Sequence record: MN850611.1
Length of the DNA: 64,000 nt
Source of the DNA: Escherichia phage nataliec
Reading direction: 5' to 3' (one strand)
Positions 6,314 to 55,982 of this stretch are shown piece after piece. The first letter of the stretch is position 1. Every line of letters starts with the position of its first letter. A model generated the notes under the pieces. It worked only from the letters and a program-made list of their open reading frames with translations, had not been told where the DNA came from and did not search any database. The translations under genes and the position numbers were made by a program.

Positions 6314-6438
6314 ACAGAGTTATACTTTATAAGAAGCCTTATACAGTATGTCTCTGACGTACATTGTGGTTTCTCCTTGACGGTCTCTGTACCGTCTTTT
6401 TTAAGGGGAAACATGATTAACTATTTGGAGAAAACATA

Positions 6439-6639
6439 ATGAGCGAGACCGTTTATAAAGAACTTTATGAAGCTAATAAGAAGCTAGAATTTATGCAGAA
6501 TACTATCATGGCAATTGCAGACAGATTGTCTGTAGCAACAGGTATTGATATTAAAGAAGCATCTATGGATGCACTTCTTGATGCTGTTGATGCAAAGTTC
6601 GAAGTTAAGAAAGAAGAGACTGCTACAGACTCTGAATAA
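6439..6639 (+). CDS. hypothetical small protein (66 aa)
   Basis: ATG preceded by GGAG; immediately upstream of terminase (small-terminase position, unverified). Confidence 0.45.
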   Translation: MSETVYKELYEANKKLEFMQNTIMAIADRLSVATGIDIKEASMDALLDAVDAKFEVKKEETATDSE

Positions 6640-10588: not shown

Positions 10589-11935
10589 ATGAGTTCGAAT
10601 ATCTTCAGACTTGCTGATAGATTATTCAACCAACCTTTACTAGCCACTGAATCATTAGCTCACTCAGCAGCAACTTATGTGAATAACAGATTGCTGGGTG
10701 ATGTCCAAGCAGCAGTAAACTTTGATAAACCCAAAGGTGAAGCAAGAAGTCTTTTAAAAGTAAAAGATGACATTGCTATTATTCCTATTATGGGTGGTTT
10801 AACCCATCGTATGACATTCATTGATGCAATGTGTACAGGTGGATTAAGCTCTTATGAAGGTTTGCGTAGAGGCTTTGACGAAGCTTTAGCAGATGAGTCA
10901 ATCAAGACTATTGTTCTGCACATCGATTCTGGTGGTGGTGAAGCTTCAGGTTGCTTTGAATTAGCACGTCACATTATGGCTTCAAGAGGCCAAAAGAAAA
11001 TTATTGCTTATGTAGATGAGTTCGCTTGTTCCGCTGCATACGCTCTTGCATCTTCTGCTGAAGAAATTATTGCATCACCAGATGCAGATGTTGGTTCTAT
11101 TGGTGTAATTATGGTTCATCAGGAATTAACTAAGGCATTTGAAAAGAATGGCGTAACAATTAACGTCATCAAAGCTGGTGAGTTTAAAGGTATGGGTTCA
11201 CCATTCCAAGCACTCTCAGAAGAAAGCAAAGAAAGACTTCAAAAGAGAATTAATGATACCTACGCAACCTTTACAGGTTTTGTAGCCGAATCTCGTAATC
11301 TCTCTGAAGAAGCTGTAAAGAATACTGAGGCGAATGTTTATTCTGCTCAGGAAGCTCTTGAACTTGGTTTAATTAATTCAATCATGTCTCAAGATGATTT
11401 CTTAAATTACTTACAAGGTTCTGAAGAGGCTCCTGTAAGTTTAAACGTTAACAATTCAGGTGAAGAAATGACTGAACAAGAAAAGCAAGAACTAGAAGCT
11501 TTGCGTCTTCAGGTTGCTCAAATGAAAGCTAAAGAACAGGAAGCTGCTTTGTCAGATTTGACTAATAAGATTTCTGCTTCTGCTGAAGCTTTTGGATTTG
11601 ATGCAAAAGAAGCTGCAACGACTATTTTAGGTGCTGGTCTTGATAACCCTCTGAGTGTTCTGTTTATGAATGCTATGGAAGGTGCTAACCAGAAACTTAA
11701 TGAAACTATCGCGTCCCATGCTTCTGCAATGGAAGAAAAAGAATCAGAAATTACCAAGCTGAAAGAAACTGCTGGTGCTGTTCTTGAACATTCCAACGCT
11801 ATGGAAGAAATGGGTAATGACGGCGAAGCTGATTTGGTTGAAGAAGAAAAAGAACCAGCTAAGAATGCTTCCGAAGACACCGCTGAACAACGCAAACTGG
11901 CTCTCCAGAATGCTCTAAAATCTCTTATCAAATAA
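10589..11935 (+). CDS. prohead protease (S49/SppA-like) fused to C-terminal coiled-coil scaffold-like domain
   Basis: 'GGGEASGCFELARHI...FACSAAYALASSAEEI' protease core; C-terminal ~200 aa rich in E/K/A heptads. Confidence 0.7.
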   Translation: MSSNIFRLADRLFNQPLLATESLAHSAATYVNNRLLGDVQAAVNFDKPKGEARSLLKVKDDIAIIPIMGGLTHRMTFIDAMCTGGLSSYEGLRRGFDEALADESIKTIVLHIDSGGGEASGCFELARHIMASRGQKKIIAYVDEFACSAAYALASSAEEIIASPDADVGSIGVIMVHQELTKAFEKNGVTINVIKAGEFKGMGSPFQALSEESKERLQKRINDTYATFTGFVAESRNLSEEAVKNTEANVYSAQEALELGLINSIMSQDDFLNYLQGSEEAPVSLNVNNSGEEMTEQEKQELEALRLQVAQMKAKEQEAALSDLTNKISASAEAFGFDAKEAATTILGAGLDNPLSVLFMNAMEGANQKLNETIASHASAMEEKESEITKLKETAGAVLEHSNAMEEMGNDGEADLVEEEKEPAKNASEDTAEQRKLALQNALKSLIK

Positions 11936-32746: not shown

Positions 32747-33076
32747 TTAGTCTGCCAACCTTAAATTGAAATTAACACCAAATTTTTCACATACTTCCAA
32801 CATATACTCAAGGGAAACATTACCAGTGAGGTGGATTATGTTGGATACACGAGCCTGAGAGATACCACAAATTTTAGCAACTTGCTCTTGAGAAAGACCT
32901 CTTGATTTAATCTCTCTCTTAAAACGATGTGCAACGAAGTCTCTCATTTCGTCTACATCCATTGGACAAACATAACTCTCCATTTCAGCCTCTCTATCAG
33001 CCTCCCAATCATCTTGTGGAGCATAAGGGTCAAAAGCCTCATTCATCTTTCTTCTTCCGTTTGCGTGAAGTGTCAA
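32747..33076 (-). CDS. HTH (XRE/Cro-like) DNA-binding protein
   Basis: helix-turn-helix 'LSQEQVAKICGISQARVSNIIH'. Confidence 0.6.
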   Translation of the reverse strand: MTLHANGRRKMNEAFDPYAPQDDWEADREAEMESYVCPMDVDEMRDFVAHRFKREIKSRGLSQEQVAKICGISQARVSNIIHLTGNVSLEYMLEVCEKFGVNFNLRLAD

Positions 33077-33636: not shown

Positions 33637-33720
33637 AATGACCTCAAAGTTATATTAAATTTTGTATTACATTGAGTATAAAAATAAGCTATAACACCTG
33701 ACTTGTCAACAGATTTTATA

Positions 33721-34125
33721 GCTTATTTGGCAGATTTTTTATAAGGCTACTGCCATCCTTCCATACCAAACCCTACCGAACAGAACCATGCTTTGCCATA
33801 CTGGACAACACCTGACCAGACATCACTTAAAAACCCTTTTCAAAGACTCTTAAGTGATGTAATCGAATTTTAATGTAGCTCCGATTAACTACCCATACCT
33901 TGCATTACTTCACCAAACCATACATTACCAGACCATGCCACACCTGTCCAAACTCAACCTCATTAAAAGACCCTCTTTAAAGACCTTTTAATAAGGTAAG
34001 TCTCATTTTTATGTAGTTGAGACTAACTACCCATACCAGACCCTACCTTACCAAACCAGACCTCACCCTACCCCACCATACCGTATACTACCTCATTAAA
34101 AGACCCTGTTTAAAGACCTTTTAAA
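33721..34125. repeat. three tandem ~130-bp intergenic repeat units (CA-rich on plus strand) each ending in a palindromic motif
   Basis: recurring 'tttttat..gtagct..actacccatacc...[CA-rich]...cat(c/t)a(c/a)ttaaaa(g/a)accc' units; palindrome catcacttaa(33820-33829)/ttaagtgatg(33849-33858). Confidence 0.6.
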
Positions 34126-34146
34126 AAGGAGCCTCCGAAGAGGCTA
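34121..34146 (-). terminator. Rho-independent terminator (minus strand)
   Basis: gcctc-cgaa-gaggc hairpin followed on minus strand by CCTTTTTAA. Confidence 0.5.
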
Positions 34147-34156
34147 CCCAGTCAAC

Positions 34157-34599: not shown

Positions 34600-35205
<606 letters not shown>

Positions 35206-35269
35206 TTAGTTGATTGTTAAGTTGTTTGTAAAGAACCCTCAACAGAAGACTCTTTAGAAACTTGGTAGA

Positions 35270-35440
35270 TTTTTAACGTGGCTACTACCATCCACCCATA
35301 CCTCACCTAACAACACCTAACAACACAAAACTACACCCCACACCACCGCACCACACCAAACATCACTTAAAAACCCTCTTAGAAGACCCTTAAGTGATGC
35401 TGGTGAGTACCCGTTGGTTTATGCTGCTCAGTATACTCAC
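35270..35440. repeat. fourth copy of the CA-rich intergenic repeat unit with the same terminal palindrome, plus 8-bp inverted repeat ggtgagta/tactcacc
   Basis: catcacttaa 35360-35369 / ttaagtgatg 35388-35397; ggtgagta 35401-35408 / tactcacc 35433-35440. Confidence 0.55.
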
Positions 35441-35464
35441 CAAATTTTCTATGTCAACAACTTT

Positions 35465-37673: not shown

Positions 37674-38177
37674 TCAACTTAGTTTTGCAAACTCTCCGTG
37701 GAGTTTTACAGCAGCTTCACAGTAAGCTTTATGGGCTTCTTCAGGGGTGTCAAATAAGCCAAGTGATGTCCTTTTACCTCTACATGTTATAGCAGCCCTC
37801 CATTTATTACAGTCTTTAAAGTAATGCACACCCTTGTAACCTGATTTGTTAGCTGTCTGCTTCACCCTGTTTTGGGCGTTTCCATACTTATCAGTCTCCC
37901 TAAGATTAGAGATATGATTATTACTCCTGTTACCATCAATGTGGTCTATCATCTTAGTGGGCCTGTAACCATGTTCGAACCACCAAACGAGGTGATGAAC
38001 TTTTATTACGACACCTTTGAATTTAAGTACTTTGTAACCATAAGCATCACTTCCTCCGGCAACCTGTCCAGCTTTAGCTTGTCTATTCCTGTCATACTTG
38101 TTGTAGAAGACCCCTTTGTCGGGGTCGTAAATAAAATTATCCTTGTAATCTTGAAGTGTTAGTGTACGGCGTACCAT
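37674..38177 (-). CDS. HNH homing endonuclease with AP2-like DNA-binding domain
   Basis: 'HHLVWWFEHGYRPTKMIDHIDGNRSNNHISNLR' HNH_3-type motif; C-terminal 'YKGVHYFKDCNKWRAAI...LGLFDTPEEA' AP2-like. Confidence 0.7.
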   Translation of the reverse strand: MVRRTLTLQDYKDNFIYDPDKGVFYNKYDRNRQAKAGQVAGGSDAYGYKVLKFKGVVIKVHHLVWWFEHGYRPTKMIDHIDGNRSNNHISNLRETDKYGNAQNRVKQTANKSGYKGVHYFKDCNKWRAAITCRGKRTSLGLFDTPEEAHKAYCEAAVKLHGEFAKLS

Positions 38178-40888
38178 GTCTTACCTACCTTACCAGTGCC
38201 TGTAACAAGTGTCTTACTCTTTAATCCAAGATTTTTTGATGCTTGACCATACATTCTATCAATAATCTCCTTAACATCAGGTACATCTTTTGTTGGAACC
38301 TCTAAAGAGACCTCATCGTGGTAACTACAGACCCACCTAGCACCAATAGCTGGTTTCCTACCATTTAGGACTGTAAGCTTGCGCTCTGTTAACTCTCTGT
38401 TAGCCAAGTTAATACCCTCATTCTGCACCTGAGCCTCACTGCCCATAAGTGTGTAATTCAATAACTTATGTGGAGATTTACACCATAACCACGCTCCAGC
38501 AACTTTGATGTACCCACCTTTCGCAATTGCAGAAGTTTTTCCAAAAACCTCTTCAAGTGCTTTCTTAGTTGCTTTGAAGTCTTCCTCTAGTCTATCAAGC
38601 AGCTTTTTAATCTTAGGGAGACGCACAAAGTAAGTTTGTTTAGTCAATGCACCTTCTTCCGTAGATGATGCCTTGATAGTTTTTGCAAACTTCTCGTCTC
38701 CGGCTCCAAATAATAGGGCGTAGATACCATTCTTAGCCTTCTTACGGCCTTTTGTAATCTCGTGAAGAAGTTCCTCATCCTGTGTCTCCCTACAACGAAC
38801 AATATCTTCTTCCTTGTTCAGACCAAAGTAAATGCTGTTCAGTGTATGTGCATCAGTACCTGTGTAGACTTCATAGAGGTCATTCTCAGCATCATAACGC
38901 AGATACTTGTCAGTTTCTGGGTTAAGATACTTGTCAAGATGCTTGCAGTAGTATCTACCATCATCTTGCTTAGTGAACTCAACTGACTCTTTACCCTCAG
39001 TTACCGCTTTAGTGAAGTCTTCATCACCCATAAAGTTACAAAGAAGAACTAGCTGGGCTGAGTTTTGGTCTACGGAGATGATATCTGTACCATCTTCACA
39101 AGTCCACACCTCCCTCATAGGTGCTCCATAGACAGCAGCACCAGACGGTACGTTTACAATACCATACTGAGTCATACGTCCAGTTGAAGTACCAAATACC
39201 ATTGCACCAGCACTAAGGCGACCATCTGGACGAATCTGGTTCAACCAACCTTTTTCATCATCCTTTGAGTTCTCAATAGTTCTGCGTCTGTGCATCAAAG
39301 TGTAGTATTTCGCAATCTTCTGTCCAAGCTCACCTTCAATCGTATCATAAGATGATTCAGTAAGTTTTGGTGAAGTACGGATTAAGCAAGGCTCAAGCAA
39401 ATCTGTGTACTTCTTCACAGACCAGTTATGTTCAATGTACTGTACACCTTCATGTTCAACATAACTCAAACCACACCGCTCAACCATTTCCTGCCACTTA
39501 GGATGCTTTGTAATCATCTTTTTATTGTCTTTGAAACGACAAACTTTGACAGGGCGACCATCTGAGTCTTTCTTGTAGTTCCAGTCATCTGGAATCCAAC
39601 CAACTGACTTCAAGTAGTCTTTAACAACTGCTACCTGAGTCATACGAGAAACTTCAAACTCAATTGGTGTATATGGTGCATCAATCAAACCTGTGTAGCG
39701 ACTTGACTCAAGTTCAAAGTGGTTAACAACGTGGCTGTTATAGTACTTCACAGTTTTGACTGTTTTTACTGGCTTCCAGTCTTTGCACTTCTTACCAATC
39801 TTTGCATTCAACTCATTGCAAATTGCACGAGCATCCTTCATTGCTACAAAACCTTCCTTGTATTCTTCACCAGTTACAGAGTTGGTTGGTGTATAGCAAT
39901 TCCGCTTTTCAATGTTAAAAATCTTTGTAGTTGGCTTACCAAATGGCTTGATTTCGTATGTCTGCATCTCACCGTTACGCACCTGTTGACGATACTTTGT
40001 CTTAGGATACTTGGTAATTCTCTTCAGTCCATCTGCATGACCGAATGTTTCAACATACTCATTCCAAGCTTTTGCAAACTCTTCTCCAGTGACTTTACCT
40101 TTGGTCTTAATAGTTGGAGGAAGGTGTGGTTCAACCTCTGAAGCAAGCTCATTAGTCAACTTGTCAAGTTCCTTTACATGGAACTCCATAAGCTCTTTAT
40201 CAGCTTTCCAACCATTGATAGCTTGTTGACTCATCCAGAAAGATGTTTCTTTAGCTCGCATGTAAGTCTCATAAGTGTCTATACCACACTTCTTAAGCTT
40301 GAGATACTCGTTATCAAGTGCCCGTTTAGTTTTGGCGTTAATACGGATATCTTCTACAACACGAGTGAAGATTTCTGCATTCCACACACCCCAATGTTCA
40401 ATCTCTGGTTTACGGACACCAACACGAGCACCCCATGCAGCCAAACCATGAGCACCTTTATAACCCTTTGGAGTTGGTCTATCCATCCACTGAACACGAG
40501 ACTGGATAAGAGAATCCTGAAAGAAATTACTCCACGGCTTACACTTTGGATTATCAAAGTTCCATAAATCAGGTGCAATGTGATTGAAAACCCACCAGTC
40601 ATAACCGAGACCGTTATGGATGCAAAGACGTTTTGCCTTTAGCGCAAACTCAATACCTTCACGTAAGCCACCCTTAATGTACTTAGTGTACTTGTGACCG
40701 AGGATAGGTTCATCTGTAAAGACCCATACAGGTGGCTCTTCATCGTCAGATTTATAGTCTGCGAAAGCCATTACGTGCACTTTAGTGAACTCAAGGAGTA
40801 AACCATCAGTTTCTGTATCACCAACCAAATGTAAGTTTTTAAAATCTACGTTTTCCATTTTTACTCCCTCTAAAATCATTAACCTCAT
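38159..40888 (-). CDS. DNA polymerase, family A, with N-terminal 3'-5' exonuclease-like domain
   Basis: 909 aa; motif B-like 'KKAKNGIYALLFGAG', motif C 'SYHDEVSLEV'. Confidence 0.8.
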   Translation of the reverse strand: MRLMILEGVKMENVDFKNLHLVGDTETDGLLLEFTKVHVMAFADYKSDDEEPPVWVFTDEPILGHKYTKYIKGGLREGIEFALKAKRLCIHNGLGYDWWVFNHIAPDLWNFDNPKCKPWSNFFQDSLIQSRVQWMDRPTPKGYKGAHGLAAWGARVGVRKPEIEHWGVWNAEIFTRVVEDIRINAKTKRALDNEYLKLKKCGIDTYETYMRAKETSFWMSQQAINGWKADKELMEFHVKELDKLTNELASEVEPHLPPTIKTKGKVTGEEFAKAWNEYVETFGHADGLKRITKYPKTKYRQQVRNGEMQTYEIKPFGKPTTKIFNIEKRNCYTPTNSVTGEEYKEGFVAMKDARAICNELNAKIGKKCKDWKPVKTVKTVKYYNSHVVNHFELESSRYTGLIDAPYTPIEFEVSRMTQVAVVKDYLKSVGWIPDDWNYKKDSDGRPVKVCRFKDNKKMITKHPKWQEMVERCGLSYVEHEGVQYIEHNWSVKKYTDLLEPCLIRTSPKLTESSYDTIEGELGQKIAKYYTLMHRRRTIENSKDDEKGWLNQIRPDGRLSAGAMVFGTSTGRMTQYGIVNVPSGAAVYGAPMREVWTCEDGTDIISVDQNSAQLVLLCNFMGDEDFTKAVTEGKESVEFTKQDDGRYYCKHLDKYLNPETDKYLRYDAENDLYEVYTGTDAHTLNSIYFGLNKEEDIVRCRETQDEELLHEITKGRKKAKNGIYALLFGAGDEKFAKTIKASSTEEGALTKQTYFVRLPKIKKLLDRLEEDFKATKKALEEVFGKTSAIAKGGYIKVAGAWLWCKSPHKLLNYTLMGSEAQVQNEGINLANRELTERKLTVLNGRKPAIGARWVCSYHDEVSLEVPTKDVPDVKEIIDRMYGQASKNLGLKSKTLVTGTGKVGKTWYAVH

Positions 40889-41115
40889 ACATTACTGCAA
40901 AAAATTATAAAAAGCAAGTTGACAATGCACTTGACAAGGTGTTAATCTTTGCGAAGTGGGTTTTTACTTAAAAGGTTACTTAACAGTTTAACTATACAGA
41001 TACTTTAAAACTCTTAAAAGATTATTTAATAGCTTTTAAAAAGCTTTAAAGTATAACGTATAGAATACGTTAAGATAAAAGATTAAAACTTAATAGTTAC
41101 TTAAAAGAGGCTTAC
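40889..41115. promoter_or_regulatory. divergent AT-rich control region between DNA polymerase (-) and plus-strand block; TTGACA boxes and repeated 'tacttaaaag' motifs
   Basis: TTGACA at 40919 and 40931; direct repeats of (t)tacttaa(a)ag at about 40967, 40978, 41095. Confidence 0.4.
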
Positions 41116-41538
41116 ATGCAGAAAATGTTTGTTCACCCAGACATAGCTGACTTTGTTAGAGCTTTGCAGAAGTTGGAAGAACTTGACATTGCTGCTCAAC
41201 GGGAATATGCTCACCATCACAGGAGAATGGTTGATATACAACATGAAATAGAGTTATCTGAAAACTATGAAGATGACTTAAAATGCTCTGTATTTGAGCA
41301 TATGAAAGATGTTGCTACAGCGAGACGTAAAGCTAAAGACACAGTTGCTTTACTAGATTCTCTTAAAAAGAGGTTGCAAAGTGGTACAGACCTGTGTAAT
41401 CTAGCGTCACTGATTAACGATGTTGAAACTTCTTGGGATAGGCACTATTATCCACGTTCTGAAAAGACACTTGACTTTTCTTCATCCGAAAACTTAAAAT
41501 GTTCTAGAAAGAAACTTAACCAACTGAGAGAGAAATAA
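41116..41538 (+). CDS. hypothetical protein
   Basis: track ORF. Confidence 0.45.
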   Translation: MQKMFVHPDIADFVRALQKLEELDIAAQREYAHHHRRMVDIQHEIELSENYEDDLKCSVFEHMKDVATARRKAKDTVALLDSLKKRLQSGTDLCNLASLINDVETSWDRHYYPRSEKTLDFSSSENLKCSRKKLNQLREK

Positions 41539-41539
41539 T

Positions 41540-42340
41540 ATGAATATCGATGTAGAAAAGATGCTTGAAGAAAAAGGTATTGACGAAGCATTTTTAATCA
41601 ATGCCGTAGAAAGTATGGCTATGATTCTTCGTGGGAACAACTACACAGAACAGTTTATGCCTTCAAGCTATAACTTGCCTGAAGACAAGTCTGATAACGG
41701 TGCTTTTGCAGAACAGGTTAACATGATGTTGACAGACACTACACTTGCTCTGGCATCTATTGCGGTTGGTGTTGATGCACTTGCTGAGTTCATTTTTTAT
41801 GAAATGCAAAAGAATGACTATATCAGGATGTCAGACGAAGATAAGGAACTGTTGCTGACTAAGGACACTGATTTCATTATTGATACGCTTATCTCATCAA
41901 CAAGTGCTGTTATGGCTGCTCTTGAGAAGCGTATGGAAGAGAAACTTTCACGGTATGAAAAGCTTGATTGGGGCGTAGAAGAATTAAGCCCACGAATCAA
42001 GGAGATTATCCAGCAAACTAAAGAGTCTTTGGAAGAAGCTGTTGAAAATGACTCTGTAGCTGATATAGAACCACTTCAGGTGAAAGTTGCACTGATGATT
42101 CCAGCTATCTCTACGATGATGAATATCGTTGCACTAATCCAACTTTCACAGATGATGGGTATGAGTATTGAGTTCATTGAGGAGATGACTGGCGGTGTCA
42201 GTATGCAAGCAATCAATGATGTTTTGGTGAATATTGGTGCTTCAATCATTGAAGAGAAACTACGCATTAACTTCGGTGATGATTTTGTGAAGCAAATCTC
42301 AGCTATGGCTGAAAAAGAGTCTGCTGAGCAACTGCACTAA
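41540..42340 (+). CDS. hypothetical protein
   Basis: track ORF followed by terminator. Confidence 0.45.
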   Translation: MNIDVEKMLEEKGIDEAFLINAVESMAMILRGNNYTEQFMPSSYNLPEDKSDNGAFAEQVNMMLTDTTLALASIAVGVDALAEFIFYEMQKNDYIRMSDEDKELLLTKDTDFIIDTLISSTSAVMAALEKRMEEKLSRYEKLDWGVEELSPRIKEIIQQTKESLEEAVENDSVADIEPLQVKVALMIPAISTMMNIVALIQLSQMMGMSIEFIEEMTGGVSMQAINDVLVNIGASIIEEKLRINFGDDFVKQISAMAEKESAEQLH

Positions 42341-45402: not shown

Positions 45403-45431
45403 TTGACAAAGGTTGATAGGTTCTATAGAAT
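45403..45431 (+). promoter_or_regulatory. sigma70-like promoter TTGACA-17-TAGAAT
   Basis: exact -35 and near-consensus -10, 17-nt spacer. Confidence 0.5.
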
Positions 45432-45741: not shown

Positions 45742-45770
45742 TTGACAATAGAGTATCAACAAATTAGAAT
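45742..45770 (+). promoter_or_regulatory. sigma70-like promoter TTGACA-17-TAGAAT
   Basis: same architecture as 45403-45431; upstream of SSB-like gene. Confidence 0.5.
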
Positions 45771-55240: not shown

Positions 55241-55982
55241 TAACAAGCTCTATAGCTCATCTAAAACGTGCCTAAACAGGGAAACTCTACAGATGTAGAC
55301 AATCCTGTGCTAAATGATGTACGATGTAAGAAACTATACAACATAGGAGTCTTACATGCCAAACTATCACGTCACTGAAGATGGAAAAGTCTTTAGGGAA
55401 AATGGTGTAGAGCTTACGCAGTGGAAATCCAACACTGGGTATATGAAAGTGAGGTTTTACGGTAAGAAGAATCGTGACATGTATGTCCACAGGTTAGTTG
55501 CTGAGAAATATGTACCTAACCCGAACAATCTTCCAATTGTAAAACATAAGGACGATAACAAACTAAATAACCACGTATCTAACTTAGAATGGGGTACTCA
55601 TTCTGAGAATGCTAAAGAAGGTTATGAGAATGGATGTTACAAGTTCCACAAGCGTTCATATGCCGTGAAAGCCACACACAAAGTGACAAAGGAAGTTATT
55701 GTTACTAAGTCAATACGAGAGTTATCCAATATACTTGGATACAATCGCAAGACCATCTCTTCAATATTGAAGGGTGTAAAAGAGCATAATAACTTCGAAT
55801 ATGAGTTTGAATACATCTAAATGCCGAACGACTAACCGTGATGAATGTAGCGGTGTAGGGTCAAGCGACTCGAAATGGTACGCTACTTAGAAATAAGTAG
55901 AAGATATAGTCTGGACTTACTGGCGACAGTAAGCAGCTTGAATAAAGCGGGGTAAGCTTAGCGAACTTACCTGAACAATAAG
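55241..55982 (+). mobile_element. group I intron in nrdD carrying an HNH endonuclease ORF
   Basis: conserved P7-type element 'agatatagtc' at 55902-55911; 3' end '...tgaacaataag'; 5' exon ends in T; splicing restores frame; HNH ORF inside. Confidence 0.6.
55356..55820 (+). CDS. HNH homing endonuclease (intron-encoded)
   Basis: 'VHRLVAEKYVPNP...HKDDNKLNNHVSNLEWGTHSEN' HNH_3-type motif. Confidence 0.7.
   Translation: MPNYHVTEDGKVFRENGVELTQWKSNTGYMKVRFYGKKNRDMYVHRLVAEKYVPNPNNLPIVKHKDDNKLNNHVSNLEWGTHSENAKEGYENGCYKFHKRSYAVKATHKVTKEVIVTKSIRELSNILGYNRKTISSILKGVKEHNNFEYEFEYI

Follow-up and report, generated by a model that had tools for sequence, protein, structure and literature searches.

Gene context and extent of the divergent spacer

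The window, by which we mean the whole 64-kb stretch of DNA analysed here, is a segment of a Felixounavirus genome. A 1.4-kb query around the intergenic spacer studied below matched 259 phage records, with 99.3% identity to Escherichia phage finno, while a 1-kb query of the locus was 98.7% identical to Felix O1 (NC_005282). The spacer corresponds to the Felix O1 intergenic gap between ORF96, a family A DNA polymerase on the minus strand, and ORF97 on the plus strand. The genes and translation signals on its two sides are as follows.

38159-40858, minus strand: family A DNA polymerase gene (Felix O1 ORF96; Pfam DNA_pol_A), probable start ATG 40858
40866-40871, minus strand: polymerase Shine-Dalgarno sequence AGGGAG, read in the sequence and invariant in alignments
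41105-41110, plus strand: ORF97 Shine-Dalgarno sequence AAGAGG, read in the sequence, with AGAGG invariant
41116-41538, plus strand: ORF97, 140 aa, function unassigned (phrog_4039), first gene of the rightward operon

The longest polymerase open reading frame begins at 40888, 30 nt upstream of ATG 40858, and many GenBank records place the start at 40879, 21 nt upstream of the same codon. Relatives carry frame-breaking indels within 40859-40888, and a 2700-nt polymerase gene is annotated among them, several records carrying the shorter gene. Given these indels, the shorter annotated genes and the AGGGAG site, the sequence makes ATG 40858, rather than 40888, the most likely start, and the spacer therefore spans 40859-41115 (257 bp). 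The initial annotation had described a 227-bp divergent spacer adjoining the polymerase gene; the divergent, AT-rich gap stands, but with the start at 40858 its length does not. The plus-strand block that it placed on the other side is likewise present, but is a replication module rather than a generic block, comprising ORF97, ORF98, a dNMP kinase, a T7 gp4-like primase/helicase and an exonuclease. ORF97 is confined to the Ounavirinae, with nine homologues only. The order of leftward polymerase and rightward ORF97 is kept across the subfamily, and the divergent layout with a spacer of 236-300 bp is kept in Suspvirus, Mooglevirus, Kolesnikvirus and Pectobacterium phage Arno162.

Several features of the neighboring genes were noted in passing. 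An HNH homing-endonuclease gene (37674-38177, minus strand) lies directly downstream of the polymerase gene and overlaps it by 19 nt, and Kolesnikvirus has a further HNH gene, located between the polymerase gene and the spacer. Many records, as well as PHROGs, name ORF98 (41540-42340, plus strand) a minor tail protein, yet it lies within the replication module; it is an acidic, probably helical protein with no Pfam or PDB match, and the tail-protein name is probably a propagated annotation.

We assessed constraint on the spacer by aligning 8 sequences that represent three genera and in which the flanking genes retain 55-86% identity. The distant relatives were obtained from GenBank matches, as an IMG/VR search with the polymerase N-terminus gave mostly near-identical relatives. 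Between 40911 and 41110, 74% of the columns are invariant, compared with 32% of third codon positions in the polymerase gene and 19% in ORF97/98; the 50 bp adjoining the polymerase start are poorly conserved. The sites that do vary are the nucleotides between two TTGACA boxes, position 3 of a -10 element and the n of its TGn, and, within an array of short repeats, the 2-3 nt between copies and the sixth position of the repeat. Collectively, these findings indicate that the spacer is a strongly constrained control region of the replication-gene module, with probable divergent early promoters and a long control leader.

Predicted divergent promoters

Three promoter-like sites are relevant to the two transcription directions.

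40919-40948, plus strand: promoter P97, with -35 TTGACA at 40919-40924, TG at 40940-40941 and -10 TAATCT at 40943-40948; predicted start at about 40955
40889-40917, minus strand: candidate polymerase promoter P_pol, with -35 TTGCTT at 40917-40912, a 17-nt spacer and -10 TAATGT at 40894-40889
40991-41019, minus strand: alternative weak leftward promoter-like site inside the leader, TTTTAA/TTTAAG, 16-17 nt, then TATAGT at 40996-40991

The two TTGACA boxes reported in the initial annotation are found at 40919-40924 and 40931-40936, 12 bp apart, and both are invariant in the 8 sequences; nowhere else in the window do two TTGACA boxes lie 5-7 nt apart. P97 consists of TTGACA, an 18-nt spacer and TGtTAATCT, and thus has the -35, the -10, the spacing and the TGn of a sigma-70 extended -10 promoter. 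In relatives the downstream part reads TGg-TAGTCT, with the change confined to tolerant positions. When scored with a simple sigma-70 weight matrix, P97 reached 11.4, which places it among the roughly 40 best placements on both strands of the window; its -10 matches the consensus at 3 of 6 positions and it leans on the TG and the perfect -35. Promoters of the (G)TTGACA(A) type are common to other large intergenic gaps of the window, and a single-box equivalent of P97 is present in Kolesnikvirus and Arno162. The second TTGACA was rejected as a separate promoter, since none of the three modules of this kind described below has a -10 element 16-18 nt away from it.

P97 resembles the sigma-70 extended -10 promoter T7 A1 and the early promoters of T5 in its perfect TTGACA, 17-18-nt spacing, TGn and TAnnnT key positions, and, like the early promoters of virulent phages, it has an A-rich upstream flank and is located upstream of early/middle replication genes. 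Unlike the T7 A1 and T5 early promoters, it contains a second TTGACA within its spacer and is followed by a long conserved leader bearing a repeat array, and its start is only predicted.

In the leftward direction P_pol scores weakly (5.4), with a predicted start at about 40882 and a 5' UTR of about 24 nt. Its conservation footprint is that of a promoter-like element in which the -35 is invariant, the -10 reads TAnnGT in 8 of 8 sequences, and the intervening sequence varies at constant length. On this footprint, TTGCTT-17-TAATGT would serve as the polymerase promoter. The leftward TATAGT site scores 5.3-6.0 and is a predicted promoter in the ASO1A annotation; CTATACAG, which it overlaps, is invariant but also belongs to the repeat array, and its meaning as a promoter element is therefore ambiguous. 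A further -10-like element, TAGAAT at 41061-41066, lacks a -35. Both TATAGT and TAGAAT are possible secondary promoters.

TAGAAT also forms part of AGCTTTA-12-TAGAAT (41042-41066), which recalls a T4-like MotA-dependent middle promoter and was rejected as a lone look-alike. In that class a TGCTTtA box, centred at -30 and 11-13 nt from TAnnnT, recurs at many promoters and is accompanied by MotA/AsiA genes. Within the window the pattern has just one further intergenic match, at 55948 on the minus strand, antisense to its flanking genes, and MotA/AsiA-type factors are not reported in Felix O1 (PMC3185647).

Whichard et al. (2010) took divergent early promoters to lie between genes 96 and 97, without reporting any recognisable one (PMC3185647), although the identical sequence in Felix O1 does carry the TTGACA double box. 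ORF96 transcripts were detected within 5 min in the same study (PMC3185647), and two GenBank records annotate predicted promoters in this spacer. In the literature searched we found no transcription start maps, RNA-seq or origin mapping for Felix O1-like phages. The earlier idea of early promoters in the spacer gains support from the conserved P97 sequence, from comparison, from a three-member module family and from the P_pol footprint.

The highest promoter scores of the window belong to two other sites, near-consensus TTGACA-17-TAGAAT promoters at 45403-45431 and 45742-45770 (plus strand), which lie on either side of a 49-codon ORF that closely follows the primase/helicase gene.

Repeat array, AT-rich leader and dyad

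The segment between P97 and ORF97 contains the following elements.

40955-41115, plus strand: AT-rich segment predicted to be transcribed as the ORF97 operon leader, running from the predicted P97 start to ORF97
40965-41051, plus strand: main array of 8-bp repeats found by motif scan, copies conserved across genera with the sixth position free; first half CTTAAAAG at 40967, CTTAACAG at 40979, CTATACAG at 40992 and near-copy CTTTAAAA at 41003; second half CTTAAAAG at 41013, TTTAATAG at 41025, TTAAAAAG at 41036 and CTTTAAAG at 41044
41089-41107, plus strand: two further copies, CTTAATAG at 41089 and CTTAAAAG at 41100, the last overlapping the ORF97 ribosome-binding site
41000-41054, no strand assigned: imperfect palindrome with 27-nt arms, 78% complementary, centred at 41027; main stem of the minimum-free-energy leader fold
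41054-41072, no strand assigned: dyad TAACGTAT-AGA-ATACGTTA, identified by covariation and overlapping the -10-like TAGAAT

That the spacer holds three or more copies of a short repeat, as first noted, is borne out by exact copies of TACTTAAAAG at 40965 and 41098 and by TACTTAACAG at 40977; the spacer accounts for 2 of the 3 exact copies of TACTTAAAAG in the 64-kb window and for 4 of 18 matches at ≤1 mismatch. The repeat core, CTTAAnAG, occurs five times between 40960 and 41115, always on the plus strand, where a Markov-1 model of the same stretch predicts 0.10 copies, and none of 5000 simulations reached five. With the broader motif [CT]T[ATG][AT]AnAG there are nine plus-strand copies (40967, 40979, 40992, 41013, 41025, 41036, 41044, 41089 and 41100), separated by 12, 13, 21, 12, 11, 8, 45 and 11 bp. 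Other copies of CTTAAnAG in the window are isolated and lie mostly within genes, three being in other non-coding stretches, and we therefore rejected it as a window-wide promoter or ribosome-site motif. In Kolesnikvirus and Arno162 a single TTGACA promoter is followed by 4-8 sense copies that begin at +8 to +12 and are spaced 11-14 bp apart (P ≤ 0.0075), while little else aligns there.

The leader is also extreme in composition. The spacer is indeed AT-rich (74%), and 40960-41115 reaches 78%, the highest value among the intergenic gaps of at least 100 bp in the window. By nearest-neighbor calculation, duplex stability in the window is lowest within 40959-41108, whether taken over 60, 100 or 150 bp, and over 100 and 150 bp no part of the complete 86-kb Felix O1 genome is less stable (z 4.6-4.9), making this segment a candidate DNA unwinding element. 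We considered whether the locus might be no more than an AT-rich, perhaps curved spacer whose repeats are low-complexity by-products. AT-rich spacers easily yield TTAAAA-type words, and the A-tracts show no clean phasing at a single helical period, their Fourier power being spread over 9.5-11.5 bp. Nevertheless, a motif count about 50-fold above the composition-matched model, the excess of invariant columns over the 19-32% seen at neutral positions and the retention of the array in distant relatives despite diverged flanks make this scarcely credible.

The leader contains no ATG and no conserved small ORF, its sole GTG frame not being conserved. The 41000-41054 palindrome is almost invariant, and its covariation therefore cannot be assessed. 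The 7-bp core of the dyad, in contrast to most other predicted pairs, which never vary, shows two compensatory pair changes (AU/UA 8:7; CG/UA 12:3) and zero broken pairs, a covariation score reached by 0 of 500 shuffles. The TAnnnT within it is kept in Mooglevirus, Rouille and Arno162. As a perfect palindrome at the DNA level, the dyad may be either an operator or an RNA hairpin; a repeated operator was rejected, as the 41054-41072 dyad is unique in the genome.

This bears on whether the leader acts as RNA, with CUUAAnAG and one or more hairpins binding a translational or stability regulator or folding to control the ORF97 operon. All repeat copies are in the sense orientation, the array begins just past the predicted start in all genera, and the last copy lies over the ribosome-binding site; the compensatory changes are those expected of a hairpin, and the leader RNA folds slightly better than shuffled sequences (z -2.0). 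However, an operator explains the covarying dyad equally well, Rfam covariance models gave no match at E ≤ 1 across 40700-41300, and copies of the motif in the terminal repeat of the genome sit where no promoter is evident. We regard control at the RNA level as improbable.

Two observations from the leftward operon are recorded here. A 99-aa Cro/C1-type HTH_3 protein (Felix O1 ORF85; 32747-33046, minus strand) is encoded in the polymerase operon and is the only recognisable DNA-binding regulator among 17 neighboring proteins scanned with Pfam; that it regulates the dyad is only an inference. Separately, four copies of a composite non-coding element lie at 33637-34156 and 35188-35464 on the minus strand. 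Each copy has a hairpin-like CATCACTTAAG...CTTAAGTGATG or TTAAAAGGTCTTTAAA.AGGGTCTTTTAA unit, whose stems need G-U pairs when read on the minus strand, and after it a GGT-rich tract of 60-80 nt and a hairpin resembling TAGTTAGTCTCAACTACAT; this may be an RNA-level element.

We consider it probable that the spacer is a conserved control region with back-to-back sigma-70 promoters, a repeat-bearing leader and a dyad. Host RNA polymerase would fire rightward from the strong P97 into ORF97 and the dNMP kinase, primase/helicase and exonuclease genes, and leftward from the weak P_pol into the polymerase gene. The remaining ~160 bp would be the transcribed leader of the rightward operon, with 9-11 same-sense CTTAAnAG copies about one helical turn apart beginning some 12 nt past the predicted start. 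A sequence-specific factor, probably encoded by the phage, would bind these repeats and control the promoter or the transcript, and the dyad over TAGAAT would probably be a second control point, either as the operator of a dimeric regulator (e.g. the HTH_3 protein) or as an RNA hairpin. The elements themselves, their departure from chance, their conservation and the recurrence of the module in the genome are observed; where transcription starts, what binds and in which direction it regulates are inferred. ORF97 itself has no match in Pfam or PDB and yielded no DNA-binding fold; its AlphaFold model (pLDDT 72.5) is a helical hairpin for which Foldseek gave nothing below E 0.1. Further features count against the control-region reading: near-invariant stretches of about 50 bp exceed the usual need of a simple operator array, and a pure transcription-control model leaves unexplained why the motif fills the terminal repeat.

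Module family, genome ends and the origin question

Closer inspection of the complete Felix O1 genome places the spacer within a small family. The double TTGACA followed by a ACTTAAAAGG leader occurs three times, at 11269, 21515 and 63532 (equivalent to window 40919), that is, before ORF22, in the other divergent spacer between ORF40 and ORF41 (21515 is the published P41) and in the ORF96/97 spacer. Each module has an A-rich flank, GTTGACAA-n4-CTTGACA and then the ACTTAAAAGG leader, and the first gene lies 150-197 nt beyond the first TTGACA. Across the genome, 52 of 133 motif copies are non-coding, compared with 18.7 expected, and arrays of the motif are found at only a few loci. Its densest concentration is outside the window, in a 1.6-kb gene-free region between the convergent ORF23 and ORF24 (NC_005282, 12306-13927), which holds dozens of CTGTTAAG, CTTGTTAG and CTTAAAAG copies spaced about 11 bp apart. 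Four GenBank records begin at one shared point inside the equivalent of this region, which in phage Ro111lw is the site of an exact 613-bp direct terminal repeat; the region therefore holds the physical genome ends. A motif family common to the leader, its two sister promoters and the terminal repeat would imply a sequence-specific factor.

Given that the motif is present at the termini and in three promoter leaders, the repeat is not an origin-specific iteron. This weighs on the possibility of a classical iteron origin, in which repeats bound by a dedicated phage initiator melt adjacent AT-rich DNA as in lambda ori and iteron plasmids. As in those systems, direct repeats lie beside an AT-rich region, and the copies are same-oriented and helically spaced in the most meltable DNA, next to replication genes. 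The spacer differs from them, however, in repeat length and period, its core being 8 bp with a period of 11-13 bp as opposed to iterons of 17-22 bp, and in the dispersal of the motif, whose non-coding copies are spread over many sites. There is also no Rep/O/DnaA-like protein among the neighbors, and searches of ORF97 and ORF98 against Pfam, PDB and fold databases gave no initiator match. We consider an origin of this kind very unlikely.

The initial annotation had proposed the cumulative GC skew minimum as a check on an origin. The minimum does fall at the spacer, but it has no discriminating power, as all four Felix O1 extrema coincide with gene-strand switches. The G excess of coding strands stems from codon positions 1-2, and we set GC skew aside as an uninformative origin test whose extrema follow gene orientation. 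At four-fold degenerate sites the plus-strand skew is +0.11 to the left of the spacer and +0.03 to the right, without origin-type polarity, a switch in compositional polarity being in any case a weak origin criterion for phages.

More serious, though on balance doubtful, is a transcription-activated origin of the T7 or T4 oriF/oriG type, which would be compatible with promoter function and additional to it. Transcription from P97 would open the leader, and the RNA, as an R-loop or primer, would pass to a T7-like replisome. The layout agrees with that of a promoter plus unwinding element, in that a strong conserved promoter is immediately followed by the least stable duplex of the Felix O1 genome, and genes for a T7-like replisome (family A polymerase, gp4-like primase-helicase) flank the site.

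At the T4 origins oriF (uvsY) and oriG (34) a promoter for host RNA polymerase precedes the most A+T-rich, easily unwound DNA, and active T4 origins sit at points of transcriptional divergence in or near replication genes (PMC3016281). The oriF/oriG promoters, however, are MotA-dependent middle promoters whereas P97 is an ordinary TTGACA promoter, and the T4 unwinding element accepts any sequence (PMC3016281), whereas the Felix O1-type leader is almost invariant and repeat-structured, its origin role being that of a candidate only.

T7 offers further parallels. Both phages have a family A polymerase, a gp4-like primase-helicase and a gp6-like exonuclease. Like the spacer, the T7 primary origin (phi1.1A/phi1.1B) has promoter elements in tandem and then an AT-rich part (5930-6005), with four CTTAAG/CTTTAAG copies; both contain short repeats of the CTTAAG/CTTAAAG type, and both phages have arrays of a related short motif in and beside their terminal repeats (CCTAAAG in T7). 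We know of no established function for the T7 short repeats. When the leader was compared with T7 1-6500, its best match was the phiOL-A1 interval, which is a reciprocal best hit: 41001-41072 is collinear with T7 414-492 (~80 bp), between phiOL and the -10 element of A1, two T7 promoters, with a score of 45 against 25.1 +/- 3.4 for dinucleotide shuffles (maximum 42 in 300). This similarity is only modestly significant, and may reflect convergence of AT-rich promoter or UP-element sequences. Every T7 origin requires a promoter (PMC8373140). Those promoters are read by T7 RNA polymerase, whereas Felix O1-like phages lack an RNA polymerase gene (PMC3185647). The presence of two more module copies in the genome also means that the features of the spacer are not unique to this locus. 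On sequence, the spacer is plausibly the best origin candidate.

A broader proposal would join these observations. The CTTAAnAG/CTTAACAG family would mark the 613-bp terminal repeat and three paralogous early-promoter leaders, and a single phage protein binding it could couple genome-end handling, early-transcription shut-off and the start of replication, with the spacer as the primary transcription-activated origin, related in layout and perhaps in descent to T7 phiOL/A1 and phi1.1. We regard this as speculative and, taken as a whole, quite improbable.

Felix O1-like phages are widely used in the typing of Salmonella and E. coli, in biocontrol and in therapy, and the Felix O1 genome paper stated their temporal regulation to be unknown. 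This analysis assigns coordinates to the predicted promoters of the replication module, to a repeat array found subfamily-wide and to the best sequence-based origin candidate. The subfamily-wide array, with its link to the genome termini, implies a DNA- or RNA-binding regulator, and the elements would be of use in engineering, where safe insertion sites and expression timing matter, and in the search for phage regulators.
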